Below are positions 12,192 to 55,889 of a stretch of 64,000 bases of DNA, piece by piece (position 1 is the first letter of the stretch; each line of letters opens with the position of its first letter). The DNA lies in NCBI GenBank assembly GCA_965208675.1, contig OZ242351.1:1056001-1120000 (forward strand). Reading direction: 5' to 3'. The notes below the pieces were generated by a model. The model was not told the DNA's origin and searched no databases. It saw nothing but the letters and a program-made list of their open reading frames with translations. Made by a program: the position numbers and the translations under genes. This DNA comes from Candidatus Poribacteria bacterium. GTDB lineage: Bacteria > Poribacteria > WGA-4E > PCPOR2b.

Positions 12192-13042
12192 TCACTCCGA
12201 TTCCGGAAAATCCCAGATTTGAAGAGCGGTTTTTCCCAATATCCATTCCATATCCTCCGGTGCGAAAAAGTCCATTTCGTCTCGCACGACAGACAATGTT
12301 TGCGGATACGCTGCGGCATTCAGACAGACCGGCCAATCCGTCCCCCACATAATCCGCCGCCCGCCAAACGTGTGGTACACCTTCTTTACCATATCGTGCG
12401 TATCAGCCCAGGGATAAGCCGTCTTCGATAGCCACCAGGTGTGACTAATTTTGACGTATACGTTTGGGAATGCCGCCAGGTTGAGCAGAAGTTTCAAATG
12501 ATCCGGCCGATCGATGGCGCAGTCCGCCATGTGATCAATGACCATGGTTAGACCGCTGTGGCGTTCCAGTAATTTTGCCAATTCCGGCAAACGATCTGGG
12601 GCAGCATTTTCGGCGCCGTGCTTTTTTGTGACAAGCAACATGGGAACACCCAGTTCTTCAGCGCGGCTGAAGATTCTACGCGTTAACTCGCCGCCGTACC
12701 AAGCCCCCGCGCGCCTGCGGCAGGACTCAACCGCACGCCGTGAAATCCTTGGTCTTCCGTCCAATAACTAAGATGATCCGGCGCATCCGGGTCTTCAGGA
12801 TTAATACGACAGACGCCCATGAATTTATCCGGATAAGATTTCATCGCATGTGCAGTATAGGTGTTGTCCCAGCGATAGTGAATTGACTGTACAAGAACGG
12901 TCTTCTCCACACCGTTCGCCGCCATCAACTCCAACAACATCTCTGGCGTCGCGTCATGGTTAGGGGGAACGACGGTCTCTGGCGCCCAAGGGAACTGGGG
13001 ATCGTTTTTCCAAACGTGAACGTGTGGGTCGATAATTCGCAT
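12192..13042 (-). pseudogene. Amidohydrolase_2 family metallohydrolase split by a frameshift near 12705
   Basis: N-half IIDPHVHVW...GFHGVRL and C-half VIDHMA, YVKIS, MWGTDWP lie in different frames that meet at a G5 run. Confidence 0.8.
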
Positions 13043-13074
13043 ATGTGTTATTCTCTGAGAGGTCACACAGTGTC

Positions 13075-13463
13075 TAGGGCGTGTTGACATTCATGTGAAG
13101 CTGTCCATAATCGTAGGGGATCAACAGAGTGAATAGCGAGGGCGATAGTGTTTATCTGGTCGCCTCGCCCATTGATTAGCGCTGACTAGGTACGCCCAAA
13201 CCATACAGGATGAGTAGATTTTAGGTCGAATTTCAAACCTCGACAAAATTACCGCCGTGTTGCGCCATAGTCTTGGCTCAATTGAACCGGCAATTCGCGC
13301 TATACGCTAGGGTATTGTCGATTTTGGACGATTGCCTTACGGCAGCCCGAAAATCGTGTCTGATATGTGAACAAAGGGTTAGGAGACCTAACCCCTACGG
13401 AGCGTCATGAGTCTATGCACCGCTATTGATGATCCGGTTGTGATGAAATGTCAAAAAAAACTA
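13075..13463. mobile_element. MITE-like element with IS5-type ends
   Basis: Left end TAGGGCGTGTTGACATT; degenerate right end AAATGTCAAAAAAAACTA; internal similarity to 37.6-38.2 kb and 51.5 kb. Confidence 0.6.
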
Positions 13464-13559
13464 AGGCAATCGGCAAGTGAAACCAAACCTCAATTAGATG
13501 TGTCGATGCAAGGTAATTAGGTTCAAAAACAAAGCGAAAGATTTAAGACTAGCTACCGC

Positions 13560-14279
13560 CTAGTAAAGATAGTTTTCAGGCTGATAGCCGGATGGCTCGA
13601 GCACCACAATGACTGGCCGGTCGTCCGCAGATTTAGGAATCGGAAACGTTACTGTGTGATGCCGGACATAAAATATCGGGCTGCGTTGATGGCGCCTAAT
13701 GAATTCGCTCGCCGATACCATTTTGCCTTTGACCGGCGGCAGGTAGTAGTGCATGGGGAAAATCCACTTCGGTTCCAGAATATCAAGCATCGGCTCAAGT
13801 TCGTGCAATTTAAGCGTGAGCCGTTCGCCTACAATGGCAAGCAGTACATCACACCGGCCGATGAAGGGGGCAAGCTGATCCGCATCCAGCTCGTAACCGA
13901 GGTCGCCCATATGCAAGAACCAAAGGCCGCCGGCTTTGAAAGCGTACAGGGCATTATCGTCTGCGCCCTCCGGATGATCCTCCGCTTCGGCTGCTTTAAC
14001 CGTGATTAGCGGTTCGCCGTTGATTACGGCGTTGTCTCGGCCTTCGGCTACAGCCAGCGCATCAATTACGCGCGGGTTTCCCTCAACGAGTTCAACGTAG
14101 GAGTGCCCTCTATCCGTGAGCGAACTCGCGATCACTGTGCCCGCCTTTAGCCGGAAATCGTCATCGCCGGGCAGTCCGAGCGCGGAGGGCGTGTACGGAT
14201 CCATAGCGATAGTCGGTTTTCCGTTCTCCCAAAGCCGAAAGCAGGCAAGCCCTACCCATTCAAGCGAAACGGACATCAT
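13560..14279 (-). CDS. Metallo-beta-lactamase fold hydrolase (divergent)
   Basis: IAMDPY, FLHMGDLG and IFPMHY motifs; the HxHxDH motif is degenerate (SSLTDRGH). Confidence 0.75.
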   Translation of the reverse strand: MMSVSLEWVGLACFRLWENGKPTIAMDPYTPSALGLPGDDDFRLKAGTVIASSLTDRGHSYVELVEGNPRVIDALAVAEGRDNAVINGEPLITVKAAEAEDHPEGADDNALYAFKAGGLWFLHMGDLGYELDADQLAPFIGRCDVLLAIVGERLTLKLHELEPMLDILEPKWIFPMHYYLPPVKGKMVSASEFIRRHQRSPIFYVRHHTVTFPIPKSADDRPVIVVLEPSGYQPENYLY

Positions 14280-14290
14280 CCACGCTCCTT

Positions 14291-15292
14291 TTATTCCTCT
14301 CCGAGACCGCCCGCGCGTTCCATGCCCGCAATCTCCCACCACTTTGCGCCGGGCGACTTCTCGAGTACGATTGGCTTGAGAAAATCTACCGATTTCCGCA
14401 ACCCTTCATCAAGGTCGAAATATTCCGACTCCATTTCGACCGAAAGCACATGGTCATAACCGATGAAGCGGAGTGTTGTGGCAAACTCGCGCCATTCTAG
14501 TTCGGAGTGCCCCCATCCAACCAGAGTGTATGTCCAGGAACGATCCGCGGGTTGTTCAGGCGTGCTAGAGTCAGTGTTTCCCCGCAACCGCGCATTGTGG
14601 GGGTGGAAGGTTACGTCTTTTACGTGGACGTGCTGAACGAGCGGGCCGAGAAAGCGCGCGGCTTCGATAGGGTCAATGCCCTGATACCACAAATGCGAAA
14701 TATCGAAGTTGCAAGCAACAACATCACCAATTTCATCGTGCAACCGCTTCACGGCGACAGGGTTGTGAATCATATCGCCGCCATGCATCTCGAAACACAG
14801 CGTGACGCCGTGATCGGCGGCAATCTTCCCGTGTTCACGCCAGTAGGGGAGCAGCCGCTTCTCCCACTGCCATTCGAGGGTGTCGCGCAGGAAGGGCCAT
14901 TCGGCGAAAGTCACCCAATTTGGAGCTGTGTCGCCTTCGGCGCCTTCAGGCAACCCGGCAAGCAGCGTCATCCGCCGAATACCGGCTGCTTCCATAAACT
15001 TCCACGCCTCGCGAAGTTCCTGCGAATACTTATCGGCGACCGCCTTATTCGGCATGAGCGGCGCACCGTGCGCACCCATGGCGCTGATTTCGAGTCCATA
15101 CCGAGCATAGGTGTCATGCCAGCGGTCAATTTCACCTTTGTCTGCGAGGAGCTTCTGCGGATCACAGTATTTTCTCGCCCAAAGCCCCGCGATTCCAACC
15201 TCGATCGCCTGAAACCCCAGCTCTTGCGCATACCGCAGTCCATCCTCAAAATCTAAATGCATCAAGTTCTGTGAAATCACTCCGAGTTTCAT
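14291..15292 (-). CDS. Sugar phosphate isomerase/epimerase (xylose isomerase-like TIM barrel)
   Basis: CFEMH, NFDISHLWYQGIDP, HVHVKD, GWGH and LSVEME motifs. Confidence 0.92.
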   Translation of the reverse strand: MKLGVISQNLMHLDFEDGLRYAQELGFQAIEVGIAGLWARKYCDPQKLLADKGEIDRWHDTYARYGLEISAMGAHGAPLMPNKAVADKYSQELREAWKFMEAAGIRRMTLLAGLPEGAEGDTAPNWVTFAEWPFLRDTLEWQWEKRLLPYWREHGKIAADHGVTLCFEMHGGDMIHNPVAVKRLHDEIGDVVACNFDISHLWYQGIDPIEAARFLGPLVQHVHVKDVTFHPHNARLRGNTDSSTPEQPADRSWTYTLVGWGHSELEWREFATTLRFIGYDHVLSVEMESEYFDLDEGLRKSVDFLKPIVLEKSPGAKWWEIAGMERAGGLGEE

Positions 15293-15409
15293 GAAAAACT
15301 CCTTTTTCTCCTAAACCTACCTGTACGTTAATACTCACTTGATATTTGCCCAAATAGATAATGCAGTTGCAAATTCTTAATTAGATTATTTCAGTCACCT
15401 TGCGATTTT

Positions 15410-15439
15410 AGTATATCACGGTATATGATTTTTTTTCAA
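15410..15439 (-). promoter_or_regulatory. Promoter for the isomerase-MBL operon, just downstream of the terL stop
   Basis: TTGAAA-18bp-TATACT with an extended TG. Confidence 0.45.
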
Positions 15440-15462
15440 TACATTTGCGAGTCAATATTGGG

Positions 15463-17268
15463 TTATATGTGAACGATGTTTCTTCTTCGTTCTCGGCGGC
15501 GTTCGTCAAGTTCGCGTTGATTTGCGGTTGTCGTGACTCTGGCGCGGAGTGCACCTTGAACGGCATCGGGCGCGTCGTTGTGCTCCGAGGTCGGGAATTG
15601 TCGAAACTGTGTCCAGAACTCCGCGGGCAAACCTTGTTCATTGAACGCGAGCCACCCGTTTTTGATCGCGGGTTCAAGGGTTGCGATTCGTTCCTCTTTG
15701 TTTTGGTTTTGGCGGTGGTAATAGATGTTCTTGTCGAAGTTTAGCTTACTTTTCATGGCGTTGAACGCTGAAGTATTCGCTTGTTGGATAGTGTAGTCCG
15801 GGTCGGGTCGCTGTTCGCAAACGAATTTAGATTCAGGATTTGTGTGTCCAAGCATTGCATCCGCACGTTGGTGGAGCAGGATGGCATTCTCCATCTGTTC
15901 TGTGAGCGGAACGCGACCCATCCAGCAGAGCAGGATGTATGCGTTGACTCCAGCAAGGGAGTCCACATTGTATTCGCGACCACCGGGGAGGGGTTCCCAA
16001 GCGACGACGACGGCGCAGGCGAAAGCGTTTTCGCGAGTATCTTTCCCACCCATGGAGTCGAGATAGGTGGTAAAGCCCCCGACGTTATTCCAAAAGACGA
16101 GCCGCCCGTCCGAACGCCGGAGTCCGTTGCCTTCAACCCGGAATGTGACGGCGTTGTCCATATCGAAGAGCGACATGCTGGGGTCGCGGGCAATGTTCTG
16201 GAGTTCGCGCAAACAGAAGTGGTATCCTCGCTCAACAATCATCTTCCGGACTTTGAGATAGGATAGCTTCTCGGACCAGAGCGCAGTGACGCCAAGGTTC
16301 ATATCCTCCGCGTTGGCATTATAGAATTTGTCCGCCTTTGCTTCGCGTTCAGCATCATCTAATGTCAAGTCGCGATAAATGGCTTCCCATTCTTTCCATA
16401 GGTATTCGTGGGTCGGGTGGTACAGGTCTTTGGGGGAACGGATAGCTTTGTAGTGTACGTTTTTCCAGCCGGCTGTCTTCGTTAGCCGCATGGAGATGCT
16501 ATCCGGGTGTTTTACGGTATCGGCGAAGATAAGGTTGATGTTCCCTCCGATGTCGGAAGTGAACATGACGTCCGTAAAGAACCAATCCCAATCTTCTTCA
16601 CGCAGATCGGGGTTTACGCAGCGTTTCGGGTCTTCGAGGTCGTCGACGATGACGAGCGACGGTCGTTTGTCCTCGACGAGTGCACCGCGCGGGGATTGGT
16701 TGCGTCCGAGGGGCAAGAGGGTGACGCCGTTGGCAGTCTCGCATTCGTTCGCTTTCCAGAAGGGACCGCGGAGGACTCCGAAGTCCTCGGCAATTTTAGG
16801 CTTTTCCATCAGTCCTTTGATATTGCGCAGATTTCTTTTTGCCATGAATTCGTTGCGGCTGATGATTAGGATAAATTTCTCGTCCGGGACGCCTTCAGCG
16901 AGTTGGAAGGCTTTGAAACAGATTCTCCACAGCGGATACCAGATAGCGCAGCAGGTTGTCTTTGCGGAACCGCGCGGGGCTTGGACGTTGACTTTGGCGT
17001 CGGTTTTGTCATACGGGATGGGATTGAGCAGCCGCACATGATGGGGCTGAAGCGACGACATTGTGTTCGGGTTGTGGAGGTAGTATTCCACAAAGAATTC
17101 GGGAAAGATATAAGCCATGTGCACCAATAGCGCCCGGTCGTCATCATTCCGGATTACTTCTTGCCGTCGGATTTTCTCATAATGACTTCGGAGTTTCCGG
17201 CAGTTTCCGTCCCGTATCTCGCGGATTAGATTGGGATTGGGTTGAATCGGCGCCCGTTTCGTCGGCAG
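15463..17268 (-). CDS. Phage terminase large subunit (start uncertain: 17328, 17268 or 17118)
   Basis: Walker A APRGSAKTT, Walker B RPSLVIVDDLE, DWFF; RNase H-like nuclease motifs TYLD, VCEQ, KEERIATLEP..KNG, QFP..HNDAPDA. Confidence 0.88.
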   Translation of the reverse strand: MPTKRAPIQPNPNLIREIRDGNCRKLRSHYEKIRRQEVIRNDDDRALLVHMAYIFPEFFVEYYLHNPNTMSSLQPHHVRLLNPIPYDKTDAKVNVQAPRGSAKTTCCAIWYPLWRICFKAFQLAEGVPDEKFILIISRNEFMAKRNLRNIKGLMEKPKIAEDFGVLRGPFWKANECETANGVTLLPLGRNQSPRGALVEDKRPSLVIVDDLEDPKRCVNPDLREEDWDWFFTDVMFTSDIGGNINLIFADTVKHPDSISMRLTKTAGWKNVHYKAIRSPKDLYHPTHEYLWKEWEAIYRDLTLDDAEREAKADKFYNANAEDMNLGVTALWSEKLSYLKVRKMIVERGYHFCLRELQNIARDPSMSLFDMDNAVTFRVEGNGLRRSDGRLVFWNNVGGFTTYLDSMGGKDTRENAFACAVVVAWEPLPGGREYNVDSLAGVNAYILLCWMGRVPLTEQMENAILLHQRADAMLGHTNPESKFVCEQRPDPDYTIQQANTSAFNAMKSKLNFDKNIYYHRQNQNKEERIATLEPAIKNGWLAFNEQGLPAEFWTQFRQFPTSEHNDAPDAVQGALRARVTTTANQRELDERRRERRRNIVHI

Positions 17269-17725
17269 GGCGCCGGTTGAATTGAACAGACCCCGCGAGC
17301 GACGATAAGGCTGATCTATGCTTATCATGAATTTGCTGCCTCAATTTGAGCCGTTTAAGGTCATCAATATTTTCGGTTTCCGCCGCCAAGTCATCAACTT
17401 GTTGCATCCGTTTGAGGGATTGATCGAGGTTTGGCAGGTGTTCCGCAACCAAAAACTCGTATTGGTCTCTCAAGGCGTCTACGAGGGCATCGCCATATTT
17501 TTGGGTGTTGAAGCGATCTTTAATTTTTGGATTGCAGGTCTGAATGGCGGAACGTATAGTTTTTCGATCCTGCACCGCGTTGTCGGTTCTGCATTCTGCG
17601 TAGTTAGGGCTTTGGAAAATGGCATCAACGGTCTTCGTGGTACCGAATCGCGCGATGCTGTAGGCGATACTTTTTCGGATGTCTTCGTCTTTCAAGGCTT
17701 CCAACCAAGTGGTTTTATCTAGCAT
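17177..17725 (-). CDS. Putative terminase small subunit (182 aa, helical)
   Basis: Directly upstream of and overlapping terL; AGAGGA RBS; call rests on position, no motif recognised. Confidence 0.55.
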   Translation of the reverse strand: MLDKTTWLEALKDEDIRKSIAYSIARFGTTKTVDAIFQSPNYAECRTDNAVQDRKTIRSAIQTCNPKIKDRFNTQKYGDALVDALRDQYEFLVAEHLPNLDQSLKRMQQVDDLAAETENIDDLKRLKLRQQIHDKHRSALSSLAGSVQFNRRPADETGADSTQSQSNPRDTGRKLPETPKSL

Positions 17726-17918
17726 TTTATTATCCTCTGGGTATTTTTTTGAATTATTCGGTTACACCGGGTTACACTGAAATTACGCCGGTGTAATTCT
17801 CGGATTGCTGGGATTTAATCCCGGAGCGGATTTGGGGATTTATGAATTACACCGTTTTGTTTTTTTTTGCACATCGCGCCGATTGGTTAGTGAATTGTAC
17901 TACAGGCGTTAGCGGGGC

Positions 17919-17974
17919 AAAAAAAAACCCAAAAGCGACAGTTCTTAGTTTCAAGACCGTCCACTTTTGGGTTT
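17919..17974 (-). terminator. Long hairpin plus U-tract (intrinsic terminator/attenuator) upstream of terS
   Basis: Minus strand AAACCCAAAAGTGGACGGTCTT-GAAACT-AAGAACTGTCGCTTTTGGGTTTTTTTTT. Confidence 0.7.
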
Positions 17975-18081
17975 GCCTTGTCCGCTTGCGCGGTGGTTAT
18001 TTAGTTATAGCGGTTATTGTGCAGCGCACTTCTTTGAGTTTGCTGAAAAGCCGAAAATTAGCGTAAAATGTTAATGCTGTT

Positions 18082-18111
18082 ATTATACGGCAAAGCATTA
18101 TTGGTTGTCAA
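18082..18111 (-). promoter_or_regulatory. Consensus sigma70 promoter pointing at terS/terL
   Basis: TTGACA-18bp-TATAAT with an A-tract upstream. Confidence 0.75.
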
Positions 18112-18137
18112 GTTTTTTTTATCATTTCGTTAAATTC

Positions 18138-18191
18138 AGTGGAGAGTGGGAAGAGCAGTGGTTAGTGTCTAGTAGTCAGTGAGTAGTCTAG
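18138..18191. repeat. Degenerate heptamer (AGTnnnn) tandem array followed by a REP half
   Basis: agtggtt agtgtct agtagtc agtgagt agtctag. Confidence 0.6.
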
Positions 18192-18279
18192 TTTTGGGTT
18201 TCGCTATGGCGCAACTCAACCTATGTGCCTTCAAATCTTGTGCATATTTTCACCCGAAAAGGAGCGATTTGCCCCTTCA

Positions 18280-18753
18280 TCAATATTTGAAGTCGTAATA
18301 GCTATCATTCTGGGATTTTGCGATTAGAAGCAGAACTCCCACGCCAACCACAATGCCCCCTATCAAAACCGCGTCCGTCTCTGGGTCGTTGATAAACCCT
18401 TCCGCTCGCCAAGTATATATAATCCCTTGCGCGTCCACGTAAAACATCCGCACCTTGTCGCCTTCCAAAACAAGAGGCGGCGTATAAGTTGTCTTGCTCT
18501 TAAATGTTGATGAATATGCGTCGTAGGTTCCACGTGTTTCTGTCTTGCCTTTGGTAAACGGAAGATAAATACTGTCGCTCCAGACATAGATTTTACCCCC
18601 GGCTCCGTCAGGCACCACTTGTTGTGGAGGTCCCCAACTTCTAATAAGCCTCGATACATGACTACCCTTCCAAGAATTCATAATCTCCTTGGTACTGGGG
18701 CCACAGCCAACAAGAGCCACCAACAAGCTTATCAATAAGCAATGCAAACGCAT
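18280..18753 (-). CDS. Putative lipoprotein with a C-terminal TM helix
   Basis: Lipobox LVGC, SWKG...LIRSWGPP, hydrophobic C-terminus. Confidence 0.75.
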   Translation of the reverse strand: MRLHCLLISLLVALVGCGPSTKEIMNSWKGSHVSRLIRSWGPPQQVVPDGAGGKIYVWSDSIYLPFTKGKTETRGTYDAYSSTFKSKTTYTPPLVLEGDKVRMFYVDAQGIIYTWRAEGFINDPETDAVLIGGIVVGVGVLLLIAKSQNDSYYDFKY

Positions 18754-18858
18754 AACAATCTCCTCCCTAGTGTTTTTGGTTTATTAGAAGAATCATATCT
18801 ATATGTCAAAAGAGTTAGGATTTTTTTGAATTTTCGCTTTCCACTAGCCACTTTCTTT

Positions 18859-19608
18859 TTACTGTCGATAGCCGTTTTTGTCCCAAGTGGACACGGCGCC
18901 GTTGCCGTATTCGTTGATTCCTATGGCAGCCGTGCCTTCACCTTTGCCGTTTACTTGGACACGTCCGCCGTGTTCATTGACGCCGAGACTCGCGGCTACT
19001 TTCCCATCTATTCGATACACATTGACCTCCCCGCCATGTTCATTGACGCGAAACTTCGCGCCCGGTTTCAAGTCGTTACTATGGGTTTGGACACACCCGC
19101 CATCTTCATCAGAATAAAGGGATACGGTTGTTACAGGGACACGCACATCTTTATTATTATACTTATACTTATACGTACTATACGCAAACGTGTCAAACCT
19201 CCCACCACGATCGTCCACACGGAGAGACGCTTGTAATTCCTTATTATTGCGATAAACAGTAACCGTCCCGCCAACTCCAAGGGTTTCCAGCATCATTGAT
19301 TCAGTGTCAGTGCTACGGGTAACTATGGAGGCGCTCGCAAGCTTTACCGCCACATCCCCGTTTGGGGTATACACCTCGACACTACCACCAATTCCAAGCT
19401 CGGTTCGCTTGATGAGGTCAATCACGCTGTCACGACCAAGCTTCACCACTACGTTCCCGTCCGAATCAATCACCCTCAACTCAGAACACTCAATTACTCC
19501 AAACTTATCCCTTTCCGCGGTGACTGGTGAAACCAACAACGCGGTCAACAAACTCCCTATGACCCCGCCAACTATACCGCTTATAATCAGATAGTGTTTC
19601 GTATTCAT
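18859..19608 (-). CDS. Membrane-anchored beta-repeat hypothetical protein
   Basis: N-terminal TM/signal; ~22-aa repeats such as VNEHGGxVxV; DNA repeat ccgccrtgttcattgacgc 66 bp apart. Confidence 0.8.
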   Translation of the reverse strand: MNTKHYLIISGIVGGVIGSLLTALLVSPVTAERDKFGVIECSELRVIDSDGNVVVKLGRDSVIDLIKRTELGIGGSVEVYTPNGDVAVKLASASIVTRSTDTESMMLETLGVGGTVTVYRNNKELQASLRVDDRGGRFDTFAYSTYKYKYNNKDVRVPVTTVSLYSDEDGGCVQTHSNDLKPGAKFRVNEHGGEVNVYRIDGKVAASLGVNEHGGRVQVNGKGEGTAAIGINEYGNGAVSTWDKNGYRQ

Positions 19609-19633
19609 CGCAAATTCTCCTTATATTAGAAAC

Positions 19634-19780
19634 AGTGGTCAGTAGACAGTGGCTAGTGACCTGTTTGTTAATGACTACTGAATACTCTACGCACCTTTAC
19701 TTAACATAATACAATAGAATTCGCTAGGTGTCAACTCCAAATTTAGAGGTAGTGGGCAGTATCCAGTTGCCAGTGACCTG
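19634..19780. repeat. Two heptamer arrays, each ending AGTGACCTG
   Basis: agtggtc agtagac agtggct agtgacc (19634) and agtgggc agtatcc agttgcc agtgacc (19751). Confidence 0.65.
19706..19734 (-). promoter_or_regulatory. sigma70 promoter for the gene starting at 19608
   Basis: TTGACA-17bp-TATTAT. Confidence 0.65.
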
Positions 19781-20330
19781 TCCATTGCTTTCAGCTTGCA
19801 GGTCTAGCGTGAGCGGTAGCGGCGAAACGCGATAATTATGACGAATGAGACGCGTTCGGTTGAATGCGTTCGTGACTTGTTGGGCGTAGGGAAATTCACC
19901 CCGCAAGAACTAGGAAGAACTCTAAAAACTATCGCCTTCCCTATTCGGTCAGTTGATCCTCCTTATTAAGGAGGGGAATGGATATTGAATGAACCGAAAA
20001 GGATTGTCCGGTGTTGGCGTGAGGTTTAGGACTATCGCACTCGCTATTCAGTCGCTTGAACGTTGGGTTACGATCTGTCATAAAATGGGTACTGAGATCT
20101 TCCAGAAAGGCAGACCTGTTGGATTCATACGATTTCATTTATACTTGACAGTTACAGGAATTCATGAAAGTATGGGAAGGCTTACGATTGAGCGGCGAAT
20201 GTCGGTATACCTGGATCGGCGAGGGTGCTATGCAATCGGTGCGCCTGAATTGAATAGGTTTTCAGAACTAAATTTTGGCGTACCTACGTTAATGTCAAGT
20301 GTTTATATTCTATTTGAAAGAGAAGAGCCA

Positions 20331-23321
20331 ATGCCAGAAACGGATCAACTTTACGTGGCAGTGCCATCGGCAGGAAGACTCCACGAACATACGTTCAACA
20401 TTGAGTTTGGAAAGGTGCTGGCGGAAACAGATGCCCGCTGGCGTGCCCATTTTGATGAATACATTTTGCCAGAACGGTCGGGCACTCTTAGTTCTGGTCG
20501 GGCGGATATCTTAATTGATGACCCGCAAATGCCCGCGGCAGCCATTGAGGCGTCATTTAATCCGGCGGACGCTGATAGGGATGCTGAGGCCAGGCTAGGT
20601 CAGAATACGACACGAGGAGGTAGACCTCTGCTCGCAGTTCTGGCGTTACACATTCCGGAGGAATATTAAGGGCTTTCTGCAGATGCCGTATCCGACAAGC
20701 TAAAGGACGGATCGCAGCAGATTGGGTACGCACTGCATCAAAGCGGGTTGCGTGACGCAGATAATCGTCGGTGGCCCGCTGAAGGATTCATCCAAGGTAC
20801 CGTTCATGATGCGAGCCGCCTGATCGCCGCCTCTGCGATGCCTAATGAAGTGATAAACGCCCGCTCTGAAGAGGTGGCTCAGTTAATAAAGCAGGCGGCG
20901 GAAACGTTGAAATCGAGCCTTCACGAGAACGCACAACGGACAATAGCGGGACAAGTGGGGCAAAACTCTCCATTGGAGGGATTGAGGACTACGATGGTAC
21001 TCTGGTTGAACGCGCTATTAATCCAGCAGCGGCTGCAAGTTCAGGGAGTTAATGGCATTCCACCAGTTCCAACTGTATCGGGTGTCTCTCCGAATCCATC
21101 GGATCAGGTCGAAACGTGGCGGCGAATAATTGAAATCAACTGGCGGTCGATTTTTGAGCCAGCCGTCAACGCGTTAGCGGTTTGCGGCGACTTCCATCGC
21201 GCCGGCACTACCAAAGCTCTCAAACGTTTGATTGACGCGGTAGGTCTGATCGAAGATGCGGATTTGGGGCAACACATAAACGTGGGGGCTGAGTTATTTC
21301 CGAAGCTGGCTTCAGACCGGAAGAAGAGTGCGGCGTTCTATACGCAGCCGGCAACGGCGGAGTTACTTGCGAGTCTGACGATTAGGCAATCGGACAAACC
21401 CGAGTCGGAATGGACGCGGTCAGACTTTTTGCGCCGGTACGTCATCGCGGACTTGGCTTGCGGCACGGGCACGCTGTTACGGGAAGGCTATTTGCGTGTG
21501 CAATCTCTGCATGAATGGGCCGGAGGAACGGCGGAATCTGTCGCAGAACTGCATCGCGGTGCGATGGAACACGGGTTAAGAGGTACCGACATCAGTCCGA
21601 TTGCAGCGCACCTGACCTCATCAAGTCTCGCGAATATCGGAAAGGGTGAAAGTTACAGTGAAACTCAGATTGGTTGGGTAAGGGTTGGCGGTACAACAGC
21701 ACTGACTGGTGCTCTCGAATACCTCGCTAATCAGTTTGCAGAAGATTTGTTTGGGGTAAGTTTCGGCAGGGCTAGCGGTGTTCAAAACGAGGCGACGAGC
21801 GTGAAGATGCATGACGGCAGCGTGGACTGGGTTCTTATGAATCCACCGTATTCTAGAACACGCGGCGGCCAAAGCGCTTTTGATTTGACAAACTTAACGA
21901 AAGAGGATCGGAAGCGATGCCAGAAACGGTGGAAGGAATTGGTTAAGGACGAACCCGCGAGTTTGCGTGCTGGCATGGCTGCATCGTTCCTAGCGCTAGC
22001 CAAACACAAGGTCAAGGCAGGAACAGGTCGAATTGGATTTGTACTGCCCCTCACATGCGCTTTCGCCGATACGTGGACGAAAACGCGTCGAATGATTGAA
22101 GCGGAATTCACGGATATAGTCTTGATTGCGACCGCAAGCGGGGCTTCGCTTAAGCATGAGAGTTTTTCCGCGGACACGGGCATGGAGGAGATGTTATTGG
22201 TCGCAACGCGGCGGGAAAATCCCCAGGAGAGGGTTCGTGCCGTGTTACATTGTGTAACGCTCTATAAGCCTTGCACTAGGAATGGGGAGGCAGGGGAAGT
22301 GGCACGGGCAATCGAGCAAGCGAGGGTGCGGTGCACCACGACCAACATGACACATCCGATTACCGTAGGAGACAGCGAAATTGGGTGTATCACAATGATG
22401 CACGCTAACGGTCAGGGATCGCCGTGGAACATGGTTGGAGTGACACATGGCGGGTTGGCACTAGCCGCCGATGCACTTACACGGGGGACGCTTGACTATG
22501 TTGTGAATACACCAATTCCTTTAGGAACGGAGATGGGAACCATTGAAGAGGTTTTTACTGTCGGACCAACACACGACCTAATTGGTCATCCAAGAAATGG
22601 AGATCCGAGAGGCGCATTCGAATTTCATTCGGTGACGAGCGAGGTTGACGCGATTGGAGCAGATAGGGCGTTATGGGAAGCAAGTTCTAAAAGGCAACGC
22701 TCGCTGCGTGTGTTACCGACTCACAAGGGATTTGCACCCCCGGGGGTAGGGACACCGGATCAGCGCGCACAGATGAGATTGTATGCCAGCACATTGTTTT
22801 ATGCGCGTAATATCAGGTGGACGAGCCAGGCGCTATTGTCCGCATCAACCGAGCAACCCGTACTTGGCGGACGTGCATGGACTGCGCTCATACATGAGGA
22901 TGTGCGAGTGCGGAAGGCGTTTGCGCTGTGGTGGAACTCCACTCTTGGAATGATTGTGCACTGGACACAGGGGCAACGGACGCAAAACGGACGCTCGACG
23001 ACGCAGATTGGTGCGCTGAAGAAGATTCCCTGTCCGCGCCTAGACAGACTCGCGGAGGCGGTCCTCGAAATGGCAGCCGCCCGATTTGATGATTTGTCTA
23101 ACCAAGAGTTGCTTCCGGCAAAAAATGCGGTCGAGGACCCTGTGCGGGCGCAGATTGACGCTGCGGTGACGAATATGTTTGAGATTCATAAAGCACAGTC
23201 TGTCTCAGAAGAAGTAATGCCGTTACAGAGCGTTCCAGATTCGGGCATCAGAAATGCTGTTGAAATCTTGCGGCAGTTATGGTGCGCAGAGCCATCCGTG
23301 TACGGTCAGAGAATGTCGTAG
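20331..23321 (+). pseudogene. Type IIG-like fused restriction endonuclease/N6-methyltransferase with one in-frame TAA at 20667-20669
   Basis: PD-(D/E)xK-like GRADILI...IEAS; MTase motifs AFYTQP, DLACGTGTLL, MNPPY, FSADT; ORFs 19989..20669 and 20748..23321 share a frame. Confidence 0.8.
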
Positions 23322-23324
23322 ATT

Positions 23325-23520
23325 TTGTAGGTGGGGTAGAAATCAACGCAGTGGATAGCGAAGGCGATAGTATTTGCCGACCCATAAAATATCGCACTCC
23401 CTGCGTGGTCGATTGATTGTTGGGTTTCATTACATGCATATCGCTAACTGTTTTGATTCATATGCTGCGCTAATCTCACCCTAAAGACGGTCTTTGAATT
23501 ACCCGTTCAATCCACCCTTC
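23325..23520. repeat. Degenerate GTAG-type REP doublet containing CTATCGC motifs
   Basis: tgtaggtggggtaga ... gttgggtttca ... tcaatccacc. Confidence 0.45.
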
Positions 23521-23569
23521 AAAAACTAACTGTTGATATTTAAAGACCGAATGCAAAGAAGAAAATTGA

Positions 23570-24526
23570 ATGAATGAAGGAAAACTGAATTTGGAAGTTG
23601 GACCTTTGCGGGAGGAAGATCCGCCTGGATTCAAAATTGAATCTTTGACATCTTATTTTGAAAAGCCGTCATATACAGTGGTAATCCGCACCCTGGATTG
23701 GAAACAATTCCCTTTTCCCTTCCACACTAACCCTCCAATTTCAGAAATACAAAGCGTAACCAAATATTCTGAGGAGCAGAATTCTCCTGTTTCAGCGACA
23801 CCGACAGATTATATAAAATTGGGAACCCCGTTGCATTACAAATCTTCCAATTCCAAGAATAACTCGGAGTTAATGGCTGACGACAGAGAAAGCGCGTACG
23901 CTGAGAATCTGGATTGGGGAAGGGTTGGGAGTCCAGCGATGGAGAGCATGAAAAAGCACGCAAAGTCAACTTTTTATGGCGTGGCGAATAATTTTCAACT
24001 GGATATAACATGGGTTAATCATAACGTCTTTATGTATTGTACTTCAACTACACCTAACACTAGCTATGAGAGAAAATTGCAACGCGAGTGCTTATCTCCG
24101 GATTACAATTTCGGGACACGCATCGCAAGTCCATCTTGTTTCGCCGCACAACTCGGTTATGAGTTCGGCAAACAAGTTGACTTCGAGAAAAACCTGAAAT
24201 CCGATCCCCCGGGCTGGCACTTGATTAACGCTTACTTCCGACGACAATCCAAGTGCTTAGGTGAGTATCTCATCCATGTAGATCATGGTCCGGTATGCTA
24301 TTTGCCGGAAGAAAAAATCGAGAGAACGATGAATCAGGTATTTGATTCAGATTCTGATAATATCTTACCATTTTTAAAAAGGACAGAATACCAAGGGCAG
24401 CAGGAGTACAGGTTTGTAATCAGCGTTCAGTTTCAAAGAATTGCCAACCATAAGGATGAAAAAAATCAAACCTTCTTCCTGAAGGTATCAGGCAAGCTCA
24501 GGAACCTTATGACTCCATTGACTTGA
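23570..24526 (+). CDS. Hypothetical protein, possible ADP-ribosyltransferase-like fold
   Basis: AT-richer 318-aa ORF; IKLGT, FMYCTS, HGPVCY and KRTEYQGQQEYRF motifs. Confidence 0.7.
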   Translation: MNEGKLNLEVGPLREEDPPGFKIESLTSYFEKPSYTVVIRTLDWKQFPFPFHTNPPISEIQSVTKYSEEQNSPVSATPTDYIKLGTPLHYKSSNSKNNSELMADDRESAYAENLDWGRVGSPAMESMKKHAKSTFYGVANNFQLDITWVNHNVFMYCTSTTPNTSYERKLQRECLSPDYNFGTRIASPSCFAAQLGYEFGKQVDFEKNLKSDPPGWHLINAYFRRQSKCLGEYLIHVDHGPVCYLPEEKIERTMNQVFDSDSDNILPFLKRTEYQGQQEYRFVISVQFQRIANHKDEKNQTFFLKVSGKLRNLMTPLT

Positions 24527-24616
24527 GGGTAGAAGTAACTTTATTCGAGCGCACAGTTAGAAAAATAAGAGGGCATTTGATTGGCGCCGTTTGCACTTAA
24601 TAATGGACAACGCCAT

Positions 24617-24893
24617 AGCTCTTGTGGGATGGGTTGAGCGGGTAATTCGGCAATCAATTCTAAGGTAAGATTCGTCTAGAGGGTTTAACACCGCACTTAG
24701 CGAAATGCGTTTAGCGAAAACCAACGCTTTTGGTAATTGCGGCAATTATCCTACAATGGAGTCCGTTCGGATTTACGAAAAGCGTTCGGTTACGCTACAT
24801 CATTCGCGTAATTAAACAATCTGAACAATACGAACGACTATTAAAATATTGTGTGCTTTTTACCGTGTCCGCTCTACCCAACCTACAAGAGCT
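24617..24893. repeat. REP doublet (outer and inner inverted repeats)
   Basis: agctcttgtgggatgggttgagcgg / ccgctctacccaacctacaagagct; inner ccaacgcttt / aaagcgttcgg. Confidence 0.75.
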
Positions 24894-25007
24894 TGTCAAC
24901 ACTAGACGTATAGCGTACCGCTGGCAATCGGAATTCTCTCTTACTAAAATTCAACCCCTTGTAGGACCAATCTCCGAATCGCGGCACTTAATCCCGCAAT
25001 CTCAGCC

Positions 25008-25245
25008 TTTGTAAGTTGGGTAGACCGGCAAATAACAAAACCGTTCTGATTGCATTAACCGTGCAGGACGCGAAACAACCCGGATTGCCAATTAGGTGCA
25101 GCAAAACCCAACGCTTTTCTGCCGTCTAGAGATTTCAAAAGCGTTGGGTTTCGCTACCCACTACCAATGCTTGAACGCAGTCAACACACCAAACTTATGC
25201 CTCATAATCCACATGTTGCAACAATCCCGCTCTACCCAACCTAAA
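25008..25245. repeat. REP doublet
   Basis: gtaagttgggtagaccgg / ccgctctacccaaccta; inner aaacccaacgctttt / aaaagcgttgggttt. Confidence 0.75.
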
Positions 25246-25355
25246 AGAGCGAGGAAGAACTATCGCGCTCCTTGTTCAGTCGCTTGATCCTTCGCTATTC
25301 GGTCAGTTAATCGATTCGGAGATTGCTGCGACAGAATTTAATATGGGGATAGTGA

Positions 25356-25775
25356 TTACTGGGGTGGGGGGCGGCGGAGAGATTTGGGACGTCCGAGGAT
25401 TTCGGACAGGATTATGCCCTGGCGCACAGTCTGTGACGACAGGGAAATGCCAGCGATGGTGTCCACGTGCGGTAACTGCGCGCCGGCAGCGCGGTCCACC
25501 TCGCTTGGAGGGATTTCAGACTCGTCGGCAGAATCTTCATCGTGGGATGGTGTTTCCTCCGGCGTGGGCGGCGGTTCTTCGGTCTGCGCATGCGGCGCGG
25601 GCTGAAATTCTTCTTCCAATGGGTCGAGATTGCCCCAAGGCGGCAGAAAAACGCCATCTTCATCCTCAAGTACCTCATCGGGTTCTGACCGTTGGCGATT
25701 TTGCCTCCGCACCGCACTCACCAGCGCTATCAAGGCGAATATTACGAAAGGAATGTATTGAATCAATTCTTCCAT
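25356..25775 (-). CDS. YqfB-like small membrane protein of the floA operon
   Basis: N-terminal TM, acidic/Pro linker, C-terminal RQGIILSEILGRPKSLR; last gene of the operon. Confidence 0.75.
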   Translation of the reverse strand: MEELIQYIPFVIFALIALVSAVRRQNRQRSEPDEVLEDEDGVFLPPWGNLDPLEEEFQPAPHAQTEEPPPTPEETPSHDEDSADESEIPPSEVDRAAGAQLPHVDTIAGISLSSQTVRQGIILSEILGRPKSLRRPPPQ

Positions 25776-25986: not shown

Positions 25987-27012
25987 TTACGAAACTCCCA
26001 GTGAATGGGATGACCGCGTTGTGTCACGATCGCCGCCCGGAACGGCGATGGATTGGCGCATCTCCGTGTCCGCAATGATGTTTCGGAGATTGTAGTAATC
26101 CATAACATTCATCCGGCTAGAAGTGAATGCGTCCGCAATACCGCGAGGCACTTCGGCTTCAGCCTCAATAAGTCCGACTGTCATCTCTTCGACGAGGGCT
26201 TTGTTTTCTTCTTCTTCCGCCTGCGCTCTCGCACGCCGTTCTTCGGCTTTAGCCCGAGCAATCTTTAATTCCGCTTGTGCTTGGTCTGTCTGCAATTTCG
26301 CCCCGACATTTTCGCCGACATTAATGTCCGCAATGTCAATGGACAAAATCTCGAATGCGGTGCCGGCTGATAACCCTTTCTCAAGGACCGTCTCTGAAAT
26401 TCGTACGGGATTTTCCAAGACCTGCTTATGGCTGGTTGCCGATCCGATTGTCGTGATGATGCCCTCACCGACTCTGGCAATAATTGTCTCTTCCCCAGCA
26501 CCGCCAACAAGCCGATCGATATTTGCTCTGACCGTCACCCTCGCCTTAACAACGAGCTGAATACCATCACGCGCAACCGCGGTGATGCCAACCCTATCGT
26601 CTCCTTTTGCAGGGATATCAATAATCTCCGGTGTGACGCTTACCTGCACGGCTTGCAGCACATCGCGCCCAGCAAGGTCGATAGCGGCTGCCCGCGCAAA
26701 GCCAAGGGTGATGTTAGCTTTATCCGCGGCGATGAGTGCGGCAACCACGCTTGCGACGTTCCCCCCTGCGAGGTAATGTGCTTCGAGATTATCGAGTGAA
26801 AGGTTTAGTCCGGCTTTCGTCGCATTTATTTGCGGGTCAATTATGCCTTTTGGCGGCACGCGGCGCAACCGCATAGCAATTAACGAAAAGATTCCAACGC
26901 GGACGTTTGCGGCGATGGCAGTAATCCATAATCGGACTGGGATGAAGGAAATCAGAAAAATGAAACCTATGACTACGACAACAGCAAGAAGGATAATTGG
27001 CAAGGTCAGCAT
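25987..27012 (-). CDS. floA: Flotillin-like protein FloA (YqfA family), copy 2
   Basis: [62 protein letters not shown]. Confidence 0.93.
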
Positions 27013-27032
27013 TTGTAAAGTCTCCTATAGAT

Positions 27033-27935
27033 TTACGACGTTAAGTTTCCTTCTCTGAACGCTGCGGCGACAGCGCGAGGGACGGACGCTTCAGCTTCAA
27101 CCACTCTTGCCCGCCTATCTTGGACATTCGCGGTCATCTCTTGCTTACGTGCGACGGCCATAGCACGGCGCTCCTCGGCTTTCGCTTGGGCAACAACAAG
27201 ATCGGCTTCAGCCTGCTCTGCCTGCAGTTCCGCACCGATATTTTTTCCAACGTTTACATCGGCGATATCAATAGAAAGAATTTCATATGCGGTGCCTGCA
27301 TCTAGCCCGCGGTCGAGCACAGTCTTGGAAATAATATCGGGGTTTTCGAGGACATCTTCGTAGGTGTCTGATGCGCCGATTGCGCTGATAATGCCCTCAC
27401 CGACGCGTGCGAGAATTGTCTCCTCACCCGCACCGCCAACGAGGCGGTTAATATTTGCCCTGACGGTGATGCGAACGGTAGCAATGAGTTCAACTCCGTC
27501 GAGAGCAACCGCACTGATCCTAGTCGTTGTGATAACGCGCGGATTTACACTCACCTGCACAGCATCAAGTACATCGCGCCCCGCTAAATCAATGGCTGCA
27601 GCGCGTTGAAAATTAAGGTCAATCTTTGCTTTATCCGCGGCAATTAATGCATTCACGACTCGCAGAACGTTACCACCTGCTAGATAGTGCGCCTCTAATT
27701 CAGGGGTAATAACTGTCAGTCCTGCTTTAGTCGCACTAACCTGTCCATTTACAATTACATTGGGGTTCACGCGACGTAAGCGCATCCCCACCAGATCGCT
27801 GACGATGCGAATACGCACACCCGCCGCCCGGGCGGCGATCCAAAGTCCAACCGGCACGAAGTAAAAAAAGATGAACAAAAAAAACAGAATTACTACGGCG
27901 AAAATTGCGATAGGCAATTGTCCCAATTCTTCCAT
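27033..27935 (-). CDS. floA: Flotillin-like protein FloA (YqfA family), copy 1, shorter C-terminus
   Basis: Same motifs; ends at AFREGNLTS without the DYY..N..ADT tail. Confidence 0.92.
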
Positions 27936-28069
27936 GTCGAATCTCCTTACAATTACCGATGGCGCCACTTAGCGCTGGATTTAACTACTCAAATCCGGAA
28001 TTCTCACACTGTGTTTTTGGACTCGATAACCCACACGCAGAATAGATTGCCAAAGGATATTCACATCAT

Positions 28070-28552
28070 TCAAAAACTGCGGACTACAACTCGGTTGCTC
28101 TCAACAACAATCACTTCCACTTCTGCATCAGTCTCGATGAATTCTCCACTTGTTACAACATCTACTCTGTGACCGTCAATTAAAGCTGCACCGGCTGGCC
28201 TTAGCGGCGTAATCGCACGACCGGATTTCCCAACAAGATTACCCAGACTCTCAGACGGCGCTTGAAAACCATCGGCGCTCTTTTGAGCGGTGTCAAGAAT
28301 AAAAGTCTTGCCGAGTCTCGTGCGAGGGGCAAGCCACAGCCCAAATATTGCAATCGGAATAGTCACGATGACGACGCCGCCAGCGTACATCAATGCCGTT
28401 TCCCAGCCTGCGGATAACCACACGCTCGCCACACCAATGGAAATTAATACAATTCCCGGTATACCTGCAGCGCCAAAACCGGGGAGCAAGATAATTTCAA
28501 TGAATACCAACAAAAGACCTAAACCGATGAGGAAGATGGGCAACCAAGACAT
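28070..28552 (-). CDS. Short NfeD family protein (TM + OB fold)
   Basis: EIILLPGFG, GKSGRAITPLRPAG and VDVVTSGEFI motifs. Confidence 0.9.
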   Translation of the reverse strand: MSWLPIFLIGLGLLLVFIEIILLPGFGAAGIPGIVLISIGVASVWLSAGWETALMYAGGVVIVTIPIAIFGLWLAPRTRLGKTFILDTAQKSADGFQAPSESLGNLVGKSGRAITPLRPAGAALIDGHRVDVVTSGEFIETDAEVEVIVVESNRVVVRSF

Positions 28553-28710
28553 GGGAATATGTAACACCTAATGCGAAAATTTTAAGGTTTATCCAATTGA
28601 ACGCTCAAGGCATTTTATTAGGTACACTCCGTGTACCATCGCGACACATATCGTTTTAAAACCCGATGTCAGCATTGTGACGCGGGTTACGGTTACTATT
28701 ATGTTTTTTA

Positions 28711-30240: not shown

Positions 30241-30266
30241 ATCTAACACCTGCTTTCCCCGATGGT

Positions 30267-38390: not shown

Positions 38391-39218
38391 ATGAAACGGC
38401 TATTCGGCACAATGTTATCGGTGAGTCTGGTGCTCATTGGGTTGAGTGCTTATAGCATCGATCAGAATAACATCCTCGTCCATTGGTCATTCGACGAACT
38501 TGATGGAGAGATTTTTAAAGATGAATCGGGTAATGGCCATGATGGAAGACTTGATGGCGACGGCGCAGTCGTCGAAGGGAGAATTAACAACGCTGTCCAT
38601 CTGACTGGCGGTTACGTCACTTTGGCTTCGGGTATAGGCAATGTTGTTGAGTCCGTGGGCGAAACAGGCGAAATCTCTATGGAGGCGTCGATTTACATGA
38701 GCGCCCACGACGCTTGGGATTCGGTAATTTCAATTGGGGAAGGCGATGAGAATGGTCCGCTTGAGGGAAACAGAGCAATCATTTTCCGAATGATGGTCTC
38801 CCCCGATCTTACGCCATACTGGAACATAGGTTATCGAGCAGACCACAACTTCCCAGATTTCGTGTTCGACCTGGACACATGGTATCACTACGTTATTACG
38901 GGCGATAGCGAAACCAGCAAAATTTACATTAACGGCGAGCTAATTGTTGAAGACCCGCATTCCAACCACAATGTACCGGAGGACTTCGCATTCGCGACGT
39001 ATACGGATGTGTTCATGTTTGTTGGAGCGGGCGAAGCACCACACGTCTGGAGGTTTGAAGACGCAATTGTTGATGAAGTTGCAATCTACAATAAGGTGCT
39101 CTCCGAAGGCGAAATCAACGATTTGATGGCGAACGGGATTCCCGGTGTCCTCACCTCAGTTGATGCAAAGGACAAATTAGCCGCACGCTGGGGAGAAATT
39201 AAAGCGCAGCATGAATAG
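38391..39218 (+). CDS. Secreted LamG (ConA-like) domain protein 1
   Basis: Signal peptide, HWSFDE, WYHYV, KIYING, VDEVAIYNKVLS; tail VDAKDKLAARWGEIK. Confidence 0.9.
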   Translation: MKRLFGTMLSVSLVLIGLSAYSIDQNNILVHWSFDELDGEIFKDESGNGHDGRLDGDGAVVEGRINNAVHLTGGYVTLASGIGNVVESVGETGEISMEASIYMSAHDAWDSVISIGEGDENGPLEGNRAIIFRMMVSPDLTPYWNIGYRADHNFPDFVFDLDTWYHYVITGDSETSKIYINGELIVEDPHSNHNVPEDFAFATYTDVFMFVGAGEAPHVWRFEDAIVDEVAIYNKVLSEGEINDLMANGIPGVLTSVDAKDKLAARWGEIKAQHE

Positions 39219-40615: not shown

Positions 40616-40666
40616 ATTCAGGTGCGGCAATTGGTTGTTTAATTTGAATGTAAAGGAGTGCTAAAA

Positions 40667-55880: not shown

Positions 55881-55889
55881 GCAGGCTCC

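Follow-up and report, generated by a model that had tools for sequence, protein, structure and literature searches.

A 64,000-bp stretch of a Candidatus Poribacteria chromosome (assembly GCA_965208675.1, contig OZ242351.1, positions 1,056,001 to 1,120,000; hereafter the window, in whose coordinates positions without another label are given) carries on its reverse strand what we conclude, with high confidence from sequence and structural modelling, to be a phage-derived two-gene terminase cassette, made up of a protein in the position of a small terminase subunit (TerS) and a large terminase subunit (TerL) with intact catalytic residues. We are similarly confident that the family to which it belongs is found only in Candidatus Poribacteria genomes, with no recognisable portal, capsid, tail, integrase, or replication gene nearby. 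In the clade that includes the window copy the unit reads, in order, as a predicted consensus promoter, a terminated leader of ~100 nt, a repeat array, the small gene, and terL. We propose, at a probability of roughly 0.4, that the cassettes are resident, helper-dependent modules for the initiation of packaging, which would combine hijacking of or interference with a phage with lateral transduction.

The TerL gene (15463..17328, reverse strand) is an uninterrupted open reading frame (ORF) of 621 aa. Its first ATG lies 152 nt inside the small ORF, and a conserved ATG is present at TerL residue 71, 3' of the small-ORF stop codon. Codon-position counts do not distinguish the coding frame within the 152-nt overlap, and the sequence leaves it uncertain which of the two ATGs is the true start. 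The PHROG family phrog_38 ('terminase large subunit') matches residues 57-612 (E = 3.5e-53). There are no Pfam matches at E up to 0.01, the protein scores below the cut-offs of the NCBIfam TerL models TIGR01630 and NF033889, and PDB searches with the TerL sequence and with the family profile return only P-loop similarity to ABC ATPases. The only named relative in the protein collection is a single record labelled 'hypothetical protein', which is explained by the lack of a Pfam match and the sub-cut-off NCBIfam scores, and since both resources miss the family, standard prophage and defence finders will not report the cassette.

An AlphaFold2 model of TerL generated with 15 family members as input (mean pLDDT, the predicted local distance difference test score, 78.8) resembles solved large terminases over both domains, with PhiV-1 (E = 1.3e-14) and T4 gp17 (2.4e-10) as the best matches and HK97, D6E, T7, and Sf6 following. 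The modelled ATPase half matches the ATPase domains of T4 gp17, P74-26, D6E, and Sf6, and the modelled nuclease half matches the nuclease domains of G20c, P22, RB49, and human cytomegalovirus, as well as RuvC, such that the N-terminal P-loop ATPase and the C-terminal RNase H-fold nuclease that characterize TerL are both predicted. An alignment of the 15 family members, with identity down to 33%, has K123 and T125 of the P-loop ('PRGxxK[TS]T'), D229 and D230 at the end of a hydrophobic strand ('SLVIVDD'), and D424, E505, D509, D585, and D588 of the nuclease half invariant in 15/15 sequences. Judged by alignment position and by the model these probably correspond to Walker A, Walker B, and the acidic nuclease site, with the metal ligands presumably among the nuclease-half residues. 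A preliminary description of this DNA had reported an undisrupted TerL with Walker motifs and acidic nuclease residues behind a TerS-sized ORF, and both observations hold.

The small ORF (17177..17725, reverse strand) encodes 182 aa and is directly upstream of TerL. Such an ORF on the same strand, 162-235 aa long and thus within the 100-250 aa of a TerS gene, lies immediately 5' of and overlaps terL in 24/24 full-length copies from four genomes of the genus. A model of the protein (mean pLDDT 76.7) predicts a compact helical domain at residues 1-70 (pLDDT >90), long helices at 74-116 and 120-150 forming a hairpin, and a disordered region at 145-182, an architecture consistent with the TerS plan and not specific for it. 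Its neighbours in a language-model comparison are all viral clusters of proteins of similar length; the nearest named family is DUF2280, a kinship that we treat as a lead only. At least four types of small protein are encoded by the family. The N-terminus of the subtype 1 proteins contains '...TWLEALKDEDIRK...', and the type-iv proteins, found in sister genomes, match the TerS family phrog_4102 (E 1e-20 to 1e-23). In the type-iv cassettes a conserved, divergently transcribed ORF of 77-91 aa is located directly 5' of the TerS gene in 5/6 instances (e.g. L026:8090-8347); it has no Pfam match and may encode a regulator.

The preliminary description had taken the pair to be a single orphan, which it is not. 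The genome (4.89 Mb in one contig, completeness 96.4%) contains six full-length TerL copies without stops, at 1.042, 1.071 (the window copy), 1.769, 2.116, 3.834, and 4.873 Mb, and that description lacked the five further copies as well as the terminator described below. The five other TerLs are 37-69% identical to the window copy, and one of these paralogues ends 12 kb ahead of the first base of the window. In the three other genomes of the same genus TerL matches number eight, seven (of which five are full-length and two are fragments), and five. Among paralogues A, B, and C the DNA similarity begins within 5 nt of the small-ORF start and ends near the TerL stop, and the repeated unit is therefore the gene pair.

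A Pfam scan of 56 ORFs flanking the five other copies identified ABC transporters, an IMP dehydrogenase, an HtrA-like protease, and a peptidyl-tRNA hydrolase, together with a Type ISP restriction-modification enzyme (copy C), a methylase-Mrr fusion (copy B), Schlafen/AlbA_2 and NYN proteins (copy E), and IS3-type transposases. Transposases of the insertion sequence (IS) type with rve domains lie near copies B and E. The same scan found no phage structural genes, PHROG searches with 17 Pfam-negative neighbours of these copies returned nothing, and no tyrosine or serine recombinase, primase, or Rep domain is present among the ORFs scanned around the six copies. In the window itself we find no portal, capsid, tail, or integrase gene by Pfam (47 ORFs, being a set of 8 and a further 39 that are all at least 120 aa) or by PHROGs (six neighbours), in agreement with the earlier statement that the 64 kb hold no other phage gene; the only PHROG match among the six neighbours is to a family of 'unknown function', on a lipoprotein. 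By these searches, none of the six copies in this genome has the setting typical of a TerL, among the portal and head genes of a phage.

The D/E-type cassettes differ at their 3' ends in that ~250 nt past the TerL stop are conserved (L020:10383-10634 and L021:10472-10780, for copies D and E). This stretch includes an 83-102-aa ORF without a Pfam match, and ~200 nt of it are also found alone at two other sites in genome G002. In this type the predicted promoter abuts the small-ORF start codon, and the mRNA would be nearly leaderless.

Across the phylum a profile of the family matches 32/176 genomes at E up to 1e-40, with 1-7 matches each, and all 32 belong to three families of one order. Of the 84 matches listed, 75 are close to full length and uninterrupted; the remainder comprises eight partial matches and one with a stop. 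Presence is patchy within genera (6/20 genomes in g5, 9/40 in g8, and 3/65 in g14). A pattern-based scan of bacteria and archaea, using one genome per species, identified 50 distinct loci, all of them in Candidatus Poribacteria. Viral relatives are distant: the best 80 of 522 relatives in IMG/VR have 24-31% identity over part of the ATPase domain, and the 336 matching records of a phage collection are all below 60% identity, with the top rows (25-29%) coming from Mu-like, Helicobacter, Paenibacillus, and Faecalibacterium phages. With such low identities, no known virus has a close relative of this terminase.

Two other genera shed light on the ancestry of the family. In g5 the single TerL, 50% identical to copy F, is 1-3 kb from a gene for a 540-aa portal protein that matches P22_portal, SU10_portal, and phrog_156. 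In g11 one of the copies in each genome is found 3' of genes for a phrog_399 'structural protein', a phrog_511 'internal virion protein', and a phrog_156 portal; the small gene and TerL end this series, and host-like genes follow. The other g11 copies examined are among host genes such as those for NADH dehydrogenase subunits. These contexts indicate that the family derives from podovirus-like temperate phages whose terminase genes close the late region. The g5 TerL has no small ORF ahead of it, and a GIY-YIG/NUMOD3 homing endonuclease gene is located 1.8 kb upstream (L123:6266-7123) with a GHMP-kinase-like gene between. Separately, an ordinary cluster of three genes (268, 227, and 175 aa) without phage genes is present in the genome carrying the window (G000:C1:2716192-2718111), and its last two products are 50-56% identical to those of the two genes preceding the g11 small terminase gene; these genes may be cargo common to phage and host.

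The cassettes are constrained at the protein level. Ratios of nonsynonymous to synonymous divergence (dN/dS), determined by the Nei-Gojobori method with the overlapping 210 nt excluded, are 0.15-0.39 for TerL in 17/17 pairs and 0.08-0.63 for the small ORF in 16 pairs, one further pair being saturated. Locus C is syntenic in 4/4 genomes of the genus and locus F in two; locus B is syntenic in three, and what the fourth has of it is a decayed fragment. Syntenic copies persist at dS values up to about 1. For TerL at loci B and F, dS (0.12-0.62) does not exceed the values of the flanking host genes (0.17-1.55), which indicates that these copies have been inherited vertically since the genomes diverged. 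We conclude from these comparisons, with high confidence, that the family is under purifying selection at fixed chromosomal sites. Whatever the mechanism, the selection data indicate that intact terminases function in cells without recognisable capsid genes.

Vertical descent is not the whole history. At two other syntenic pairs the cassette dS is 0.51 and 0.64 against 0.02-0.25 in the flanks, a difference of at least 2.5-fold. A quick maximum-likelihood tree of 40 copies has four clades (A/B/C with g11; D/E; g8/g14; and copy F with type iv and g5), in which the type-iv copies cluster by genome and not by locus. The elevated cassette dS and the clustering by genome suggest that cassettes are sometimes replaced in place. 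Moreover, locus C and copy G001_1 have a TerL of one lineage joined to a small gene of another subtype, and dN at these mixed cassettes is 0.68-0.86 for the small gene against 0.13-0.22 for TerL; from the sequences, small genes appear to be exchanged independently of TerL.

These data bear on the simplest account of the locus, a neutral remnant in which an ancestral prophage ending in its terminase genes has lost everything else by deletion and decay of the pair is pending. The g11 gene order is what this account would predict, with the terminase pair last before host-like genes, and the window TerL stop is only 148 nt from the boundary of the strain-specific island described below; there are also decayed fragments (two in G002) and split or partial copies (in G038, G040, and G061). 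However, both genes are intact in all 24 full-length copies, and most of the family matches listed (75/84) are near full length and free of stops. The catalytic residues do not vary even where identity falls to 33%, and none of the six copies in the genome is accompanied by a further phage gene that the Pfam and PHROG searches recognise. The dN/dS values, together with synteny maintained to dS of about 1, make a passively decaying relic untenable, and we consider this account close to refuted. The trimmed prophage relic of the preliminary description thus survives as to phage origin, given the g11 and g5 contexts, and fails as to passive decay.

The preliminary description also raised the possibility of a dispersed gene transfer agent (GTA). 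On this view the cassettes would be the packaging loci of a particle under host control, and genes for its head and tail, diverged beyond recognition, would lie elsewhere in the genome. Several intact terminase pairs, purifying selection, and vertical inheritance at fixed loci are all in keeping with a GTA, and GTAs split over several loci are known (PMC5026251). Matches to PF04860 (Phage_portal), PF05133 (SPP1_portal), and PF05065 (Phage_capsid) are nonetheless absent from the genome while present in control genomes; PF06074 (Portal_Mu) gave no matches, control genomes included, so that its silence carries no information. Neither phrog_156 nor PF16510 (P22_portal) has a match in any of the four genomes of the genus, although the g5 control genome G013 is positive, and the g5 portal protein used as a query also finds nothing in the four. 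Six models and one portal protein therefore find no portal or capsid gene in this genome, and two of these models, both for portals, and the portal protein find no portal in its sisters; head genes, which a GTA should have in the same genome along with tail genes, are lacking by these searches, and tail families were not searched. One terminase would also suffice for a GTA, in contrast to the six here, each with a different recognition subunit and its own site, and presence is patchy even within g5, g8, and g14. We consider a dispersed GTA very unlikely.

The region upstream of the small gene has a distinctive organization. A sigma-70 promoter matching the consensus at 12/12 positions (TTGACA-18-TATAAT; 18082..18111, reverse strand) is predicted, as the preliminary description had noted; promoter-like sites in the region number 8, against 3.5 +/- 2.0 in shuffled sequences. 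It is followed after a leader of about 100 nt by a hairpin resembling an intrinsic terminator with a run of nine T (17920..17974, reverse strand; dG, the predicted folding free energy, about -27 kcal/mol for a 68-nt segment). The gap between this putative terminator and the small ORF contains an array of TGTAAY/RTTACA repeats (17761..17851, reverse strand) with four strict copies, one of them inverted, and the last repeats are spaced ~10 nt apart. Eleven aligned A/B/C-type copies share the uniform order of promoter, leader, hairpin with T run, 110-280 nt, and small ORF. In a strict scan for a promoter followed by a terminator and the small ORF, the layout is found in 9/11 A/B/C, 2/2 F, 4/5 g11, and 1/7 g8/g14 copies, the prophage-linked g11 copy (g11_G038b) being one of the four. 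The hairpins of types A, B, C, and F are four unrelated sequences in the same place, each with a T run (seven to eight T within the extracted segments), such that the predicted structure appears to be conserved rather than the sequence. Rfam searches of 15200-20800 gave two sub-threshold, chance-level matches and nothing credible, and the leader sequence has no second copy anywhere in the genome.

The repeats covary with the small protein. There are 3-5 TGTAAY/RTTACA copies per 220 nt before 8/8 subtype-1 small ORFs and none before the 3/3 of subtype 2, compared to a genome expectation of 0.17 per 220 nt and no more than two copies in 99.9% of 20,000 random windows. A different repeat, ATGGATT/AATCCAT, is present upstream of 3/3 subtype-2 small ORFs in 3-4 copies and upstream of the eight of subtype 1 in 0-1. 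Copy G001_1 separates the two components, as it has a TerL of the window type (76-78% identical) with a subtype-2 small gene and subtype-2 repeats. Since the repeats follow the type of the small protein whatever the lineage of TerL, it is most likely that this protein binds its own array. The array is a candidate pac/cos-like recognition site, or an operator.

We suggest the following scheme for how the cassettes could act. On its own a cassette would be silent, since transcripts from its promoter would end at the hairpin. Upon infection or induction, a related phage would contribute both empty procapsids and an antiterminator or activator of late genes, through which RNA polymerase could proceed into the small gene and terL. 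The small protein would bind the repeat array beside its gene, and TerL would cut at the array and dock on the foreign portal, leading to headful packaging of chromosomal DNA from a fixed site, with the cassette entering first. Two outcomes could follow: interference, in that fewer phage genomes are packaged, and lateral transduction, in that particles carry the cassette and its neighbourhood, often with restriction-modification or other island genes, to new cells. Recombination through flanking homology in the recipient would then make an integrase unnecessary. The hijack or interference module that the preliminary description listed among its options is accordingly the best fit to the anatomy of the locus, and we put it forward as a proposal.

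The closest competitor is defence without transfer, in which a phage-triggered terminase occupies procapsids or cuts host or phage DNA and so aborts the infection, no useful transducing particles are made, and the diversified small subunits represent different specificities. Neighbours of the defence type at copies B, C, and E and at distant copies (a TIR-TPR protein and an Mrr-ResIII protein), an 857-aa methyltransferase-like gene in the island of the window, the swapping of at least four small-protein types between cassettes, and the patchy distribution (32/176 genomes) all favour it, and the promoter and terminator layout would suit triggering by a phage. On the other side, no PADLOC model matches TerL or the small protein, a cognate array beside the small gene has no obvious role on foreign DNA other than autoregulation, and, with the ATPase as well as the nuclease residues fully conserved, TerL looks like an entire motor and not merely a nuclease. 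Defence also overlaps with the helper-dependent scheme, and sequence alone does not separate the two. We judge defence without transfer to be rather unlikely.

Several observations weigh against the proposal that the cassettes initiate packaging with the help of a phage. Long-lived synteny fits a gene beneficial to the host as well as it fits one that spreads itself. Neither Pfam nor PHROGs, searched at E up to 1, has a family that matches the window-type small protein, profile-profile comparison with the type-iv small proteins gives a probability of 1% and no link, Foldseek searches of its model against PDB and BFVD find nothing at E up to 0.001, and VIA-align returns only generic helical hairpins (Z up to 8.5). 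No candidate helper phage appears to be known, given the low identities to viral sequences. The strict scan detected the promoter-terminator layout in 0/5 D/E-type and 0/6 type-iv copies, which shows that it is not universal in the family, and no Q-like gene or Q-binding element has been identified, no search having been made for one. The repeat arrays could be autoregulatory operators instead of packaging sites, and it is possible that portal and capsid genes are present and too divergent for the models used. Such probability as is not assigned to the schemes discussed here goes to functions that we have not thought of.

Comparison with known systems helps to place the cassettes. They resemble the terminases of pac-type phages in the modelled two-domain TerL fold, the conserved catalytic residues, and the small gene directly upstream, and the subtype-specific repeat array just before the small gene recalls lambda cosB/Nu1, SPP1 pac, and P22 pac. 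In lambda and SPP1 the packaging-recognition sites lie beside or inside the small-subunit gene. Unlike pac-type phages, the cassettes lack portal, capsid, tail, lysis, replication, and integration genes as far as searched, are present in six copies per genome, and have <30% identity to the top phage records. There is a further resemblance to the late control regions of lambda and P22 in the succession of a consensus promoter, ~100-180 nt, a strong predicted terminator, and late-type genes. In these phages a constitutive promoter produces a short terminated RNA and the Q antiterminator opens the late operon. The layout is undetected in the D/E-type and type-iv copies, and the analogy is offered as a lead.

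To our knowledge, every known packaging hijacker (the small terminases of the Staphylococcus aureus pathogenicity islands (SaPI) and other phage-inducible chromosomal islands (PICI), the capsid-forming cf-PICIs, the PICI-like elements (PLE), and P4) is part of an island capable of excision and replication; lateral transduction, where it is known, starts from a prophage or island that is complete, and GTAs make their own heads. Like these satellites, and the phage-inducible chromosomal minimalist islands (PICMI), the cassettes are resident packaging-specificity genes that would need virion parts from a helper and are associated with defence genes (for satellite systems see PMC10085698, PMC10803314, 10.1101/2024.04.22.590561, and 10.1101/2025.02.19.639094). 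They differ in having no integrase, excision, replication, or regulatory module within ~8 kb of the six copies, in encoding TerL along with the small subunit and no capsid genes, in their size of ~2.7 kb, and in their long-fixed loci. The proposed likeness to lateral transduction is that a terminase would start at a pac site still in the chromosome, with successive headfuls mobilising adjacent DNA; lateral transduction by prophages and PICIs is reported to spread neighbouring genes (PMC8575938, PMC8575950, and PMC12829572). There the terminase is part of a complete inducible prophage or island, in contrast to the cassette, an initiation module only, as proposed from its sequence. GTAs share with the cassettes phage-derived packaging genes in a cellular genome, purifying selection, and vertical inheritance, and differ from them in that portal and capsid searches found no structural genes here, in the several terminase pairs with their own sites, and in the patchy distribution.

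Judged by titles and the openings of abstracts, literature searches, Poribacteria included, yielded no description of stand-alone terminase pairs of this kind. The cassettes would thus represent a new form of phage-derived packaging hijacker, with a mechanism that is proposed here. A broader formulation is that Poribacteria carry a hitherto undescribed minimal phage parasite, or a gene-exchange device kept by the host. A 2.7-kb combination of site, recognition subunit, and motor-nuclease, free of integrase and capsid genes, would exist in diversified copies at fixed sites, would be triggered by phages and fill stolen capsids by the headful, and would thereby both harm the phage and mobilise large chromosomal segments, defence islands among them. 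As we see it, this formulation is rather doubtful. If true, a resident module that only initiates packaging, diversified and conserved over long periods, would be a different solution from that of the known hijackers. Defence system, satellite, and GTA would then be less sharply distinct, and there would be a means by which genes, defence islands included, pass among abundant uncultured sponge symbionts.

The window copy is located at the left edge of a strain-specific island of 10 kb (15315..25368). Genomes G001 and G003 lack the island here and join the equivalents of 15314 and about 25368 through 87-92 bp, and G002 has an unrelated 2.9 kb at this position. The island codes for two membrane or lipoprotein-like proteins and for proteins of 226, 857, and 318 aa, and contains high-copy short repeats. 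The 857-aa protein has weak N6-methyltransferase matches, and a 975-aa homologue near another cassette has a weak Eco57I methylase match. There are no att-like direct repeats at the two ends of the island, and there are no tRNA genes in the window and thus no attachment site of the tRNA type. A promoter-like site (15410..15439, reverse strand; 10/12 with a TG extension) begins 24 nt past the TerL stop, outside the cassette, and faces a downstream gene for a xylose-isomerase-like TIM-barrel protein (14291-15292); this is the promoter that the preliminary description placed ~25 bp after the stop.

The cassette unit itself (15458..18132, reverse strand; about 2.7 kb, with 2.5-2.8 kb across copies) has 82% nucleotide identity to a copy in another context (G003:64364-67032), and its G001 counterpart is 81% identical over 15458-17108. 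The G003 and G001 copies share a syntenic context that differs from that of the window, and the exact cassette locus of the window is present in only 1/4 genomes of the genus. The preliminary description had named, as grounds for abandoning its interpretation, restriction to one strain with dN/dS near 1, a full prophage at this site in relatives, and a mis-assembly. The restricted occurrence applies to the locus, and the dN/dS does not approach 1 (0.15-0.19 for the orthologues); no prophage was found at the site in relatives, and there is no sign of mis-assembly. Over 14000-16647 and 16620-18931 the window is matched without a single difference by contigs that come from three runs of one sample and bridge the junction between the host gene and TerL, an agreement that is not independent support, since the sample may be the source of the assembly. 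In a metagenome contig from another study 15304 is joined to 20302 through ~760 other bases, and contigs of the same run over 15430-17947 have roughly 5-10% differing bases, which hints that the cassette and two neighbouring genes form an insertion-deletion unit of their own.

Such differences in location raise the question of an autonomous mobile element, in which the RNase H-fold nuclease of TerL would act like a transposase, with DNA binding provided by the small protein. The unit is discrete (2.5-2.8 kb) and multi-copy, and the same type occurs in different contexts, both for the window copy compared to G003 and G001 and for copy E compared to G002_2 (91%). However, we saw no terminal inverted repeats or target-site duplications at the unit ends, and with 37-69% identity the paralogues within the genome are old. 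Synteny is stable at many of the loci, and the window copy came or went with the 10-kb island and not alone. We know of no terminase that transposes, and give an autonomous element little chance.

By Pfam the remainder of the window has housekeeping, restriction-modification, and IS transposase genes. Short repeats at 13074-13464, 19838-20254, and 24842-25675 have many copies across the sister genomes, a contig depth 5-20x that of their surroundings, and a common motif of ~37 nt; they look like elements of the miniature inverted-repeat transposable (MITE) or repetitive extragenic palindromic (REP) kind flanking the variable parts of the island. To the left, at 12192-13090 (reverse strand), overlapping ORFs of 190 and 135 aa correspond to the C- and N-terminal halves of Amidohydro_2, and a relative (L126) has one intact gene of 286 aa; the two ORFs look like a single gene split by a frameshift or by an error in the sequence. 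A second cluster of the defence type occupies 52911-63953, with genes for a 989-aa ResIII helicase/Type III restriction-like protein, a 992-aa Type III methyltransferase (PADLOC, E 6e-154), a helix-turn-helix and M78 peptidase (IrrE/RmrA-like) protein, and an IS4/5-family transposase, as well as ORFs of 369 and 462 aa of unknown family. Two tandem paralogues resembling the flotillin FloA, followed by two NfeD-family genes, are found at 25987-30249 (reverse strand). Finally, an array of Laminin_G_3 paralogues (38391-43584 and 48140-48970, forward strand) alternates with family-less ORFs of 265 aa (39364-40161 and 41651-42448), and genes for a PhyH dioxygenase and for TPR and FG-GAP/ASPIC proteins are interspersed among them.

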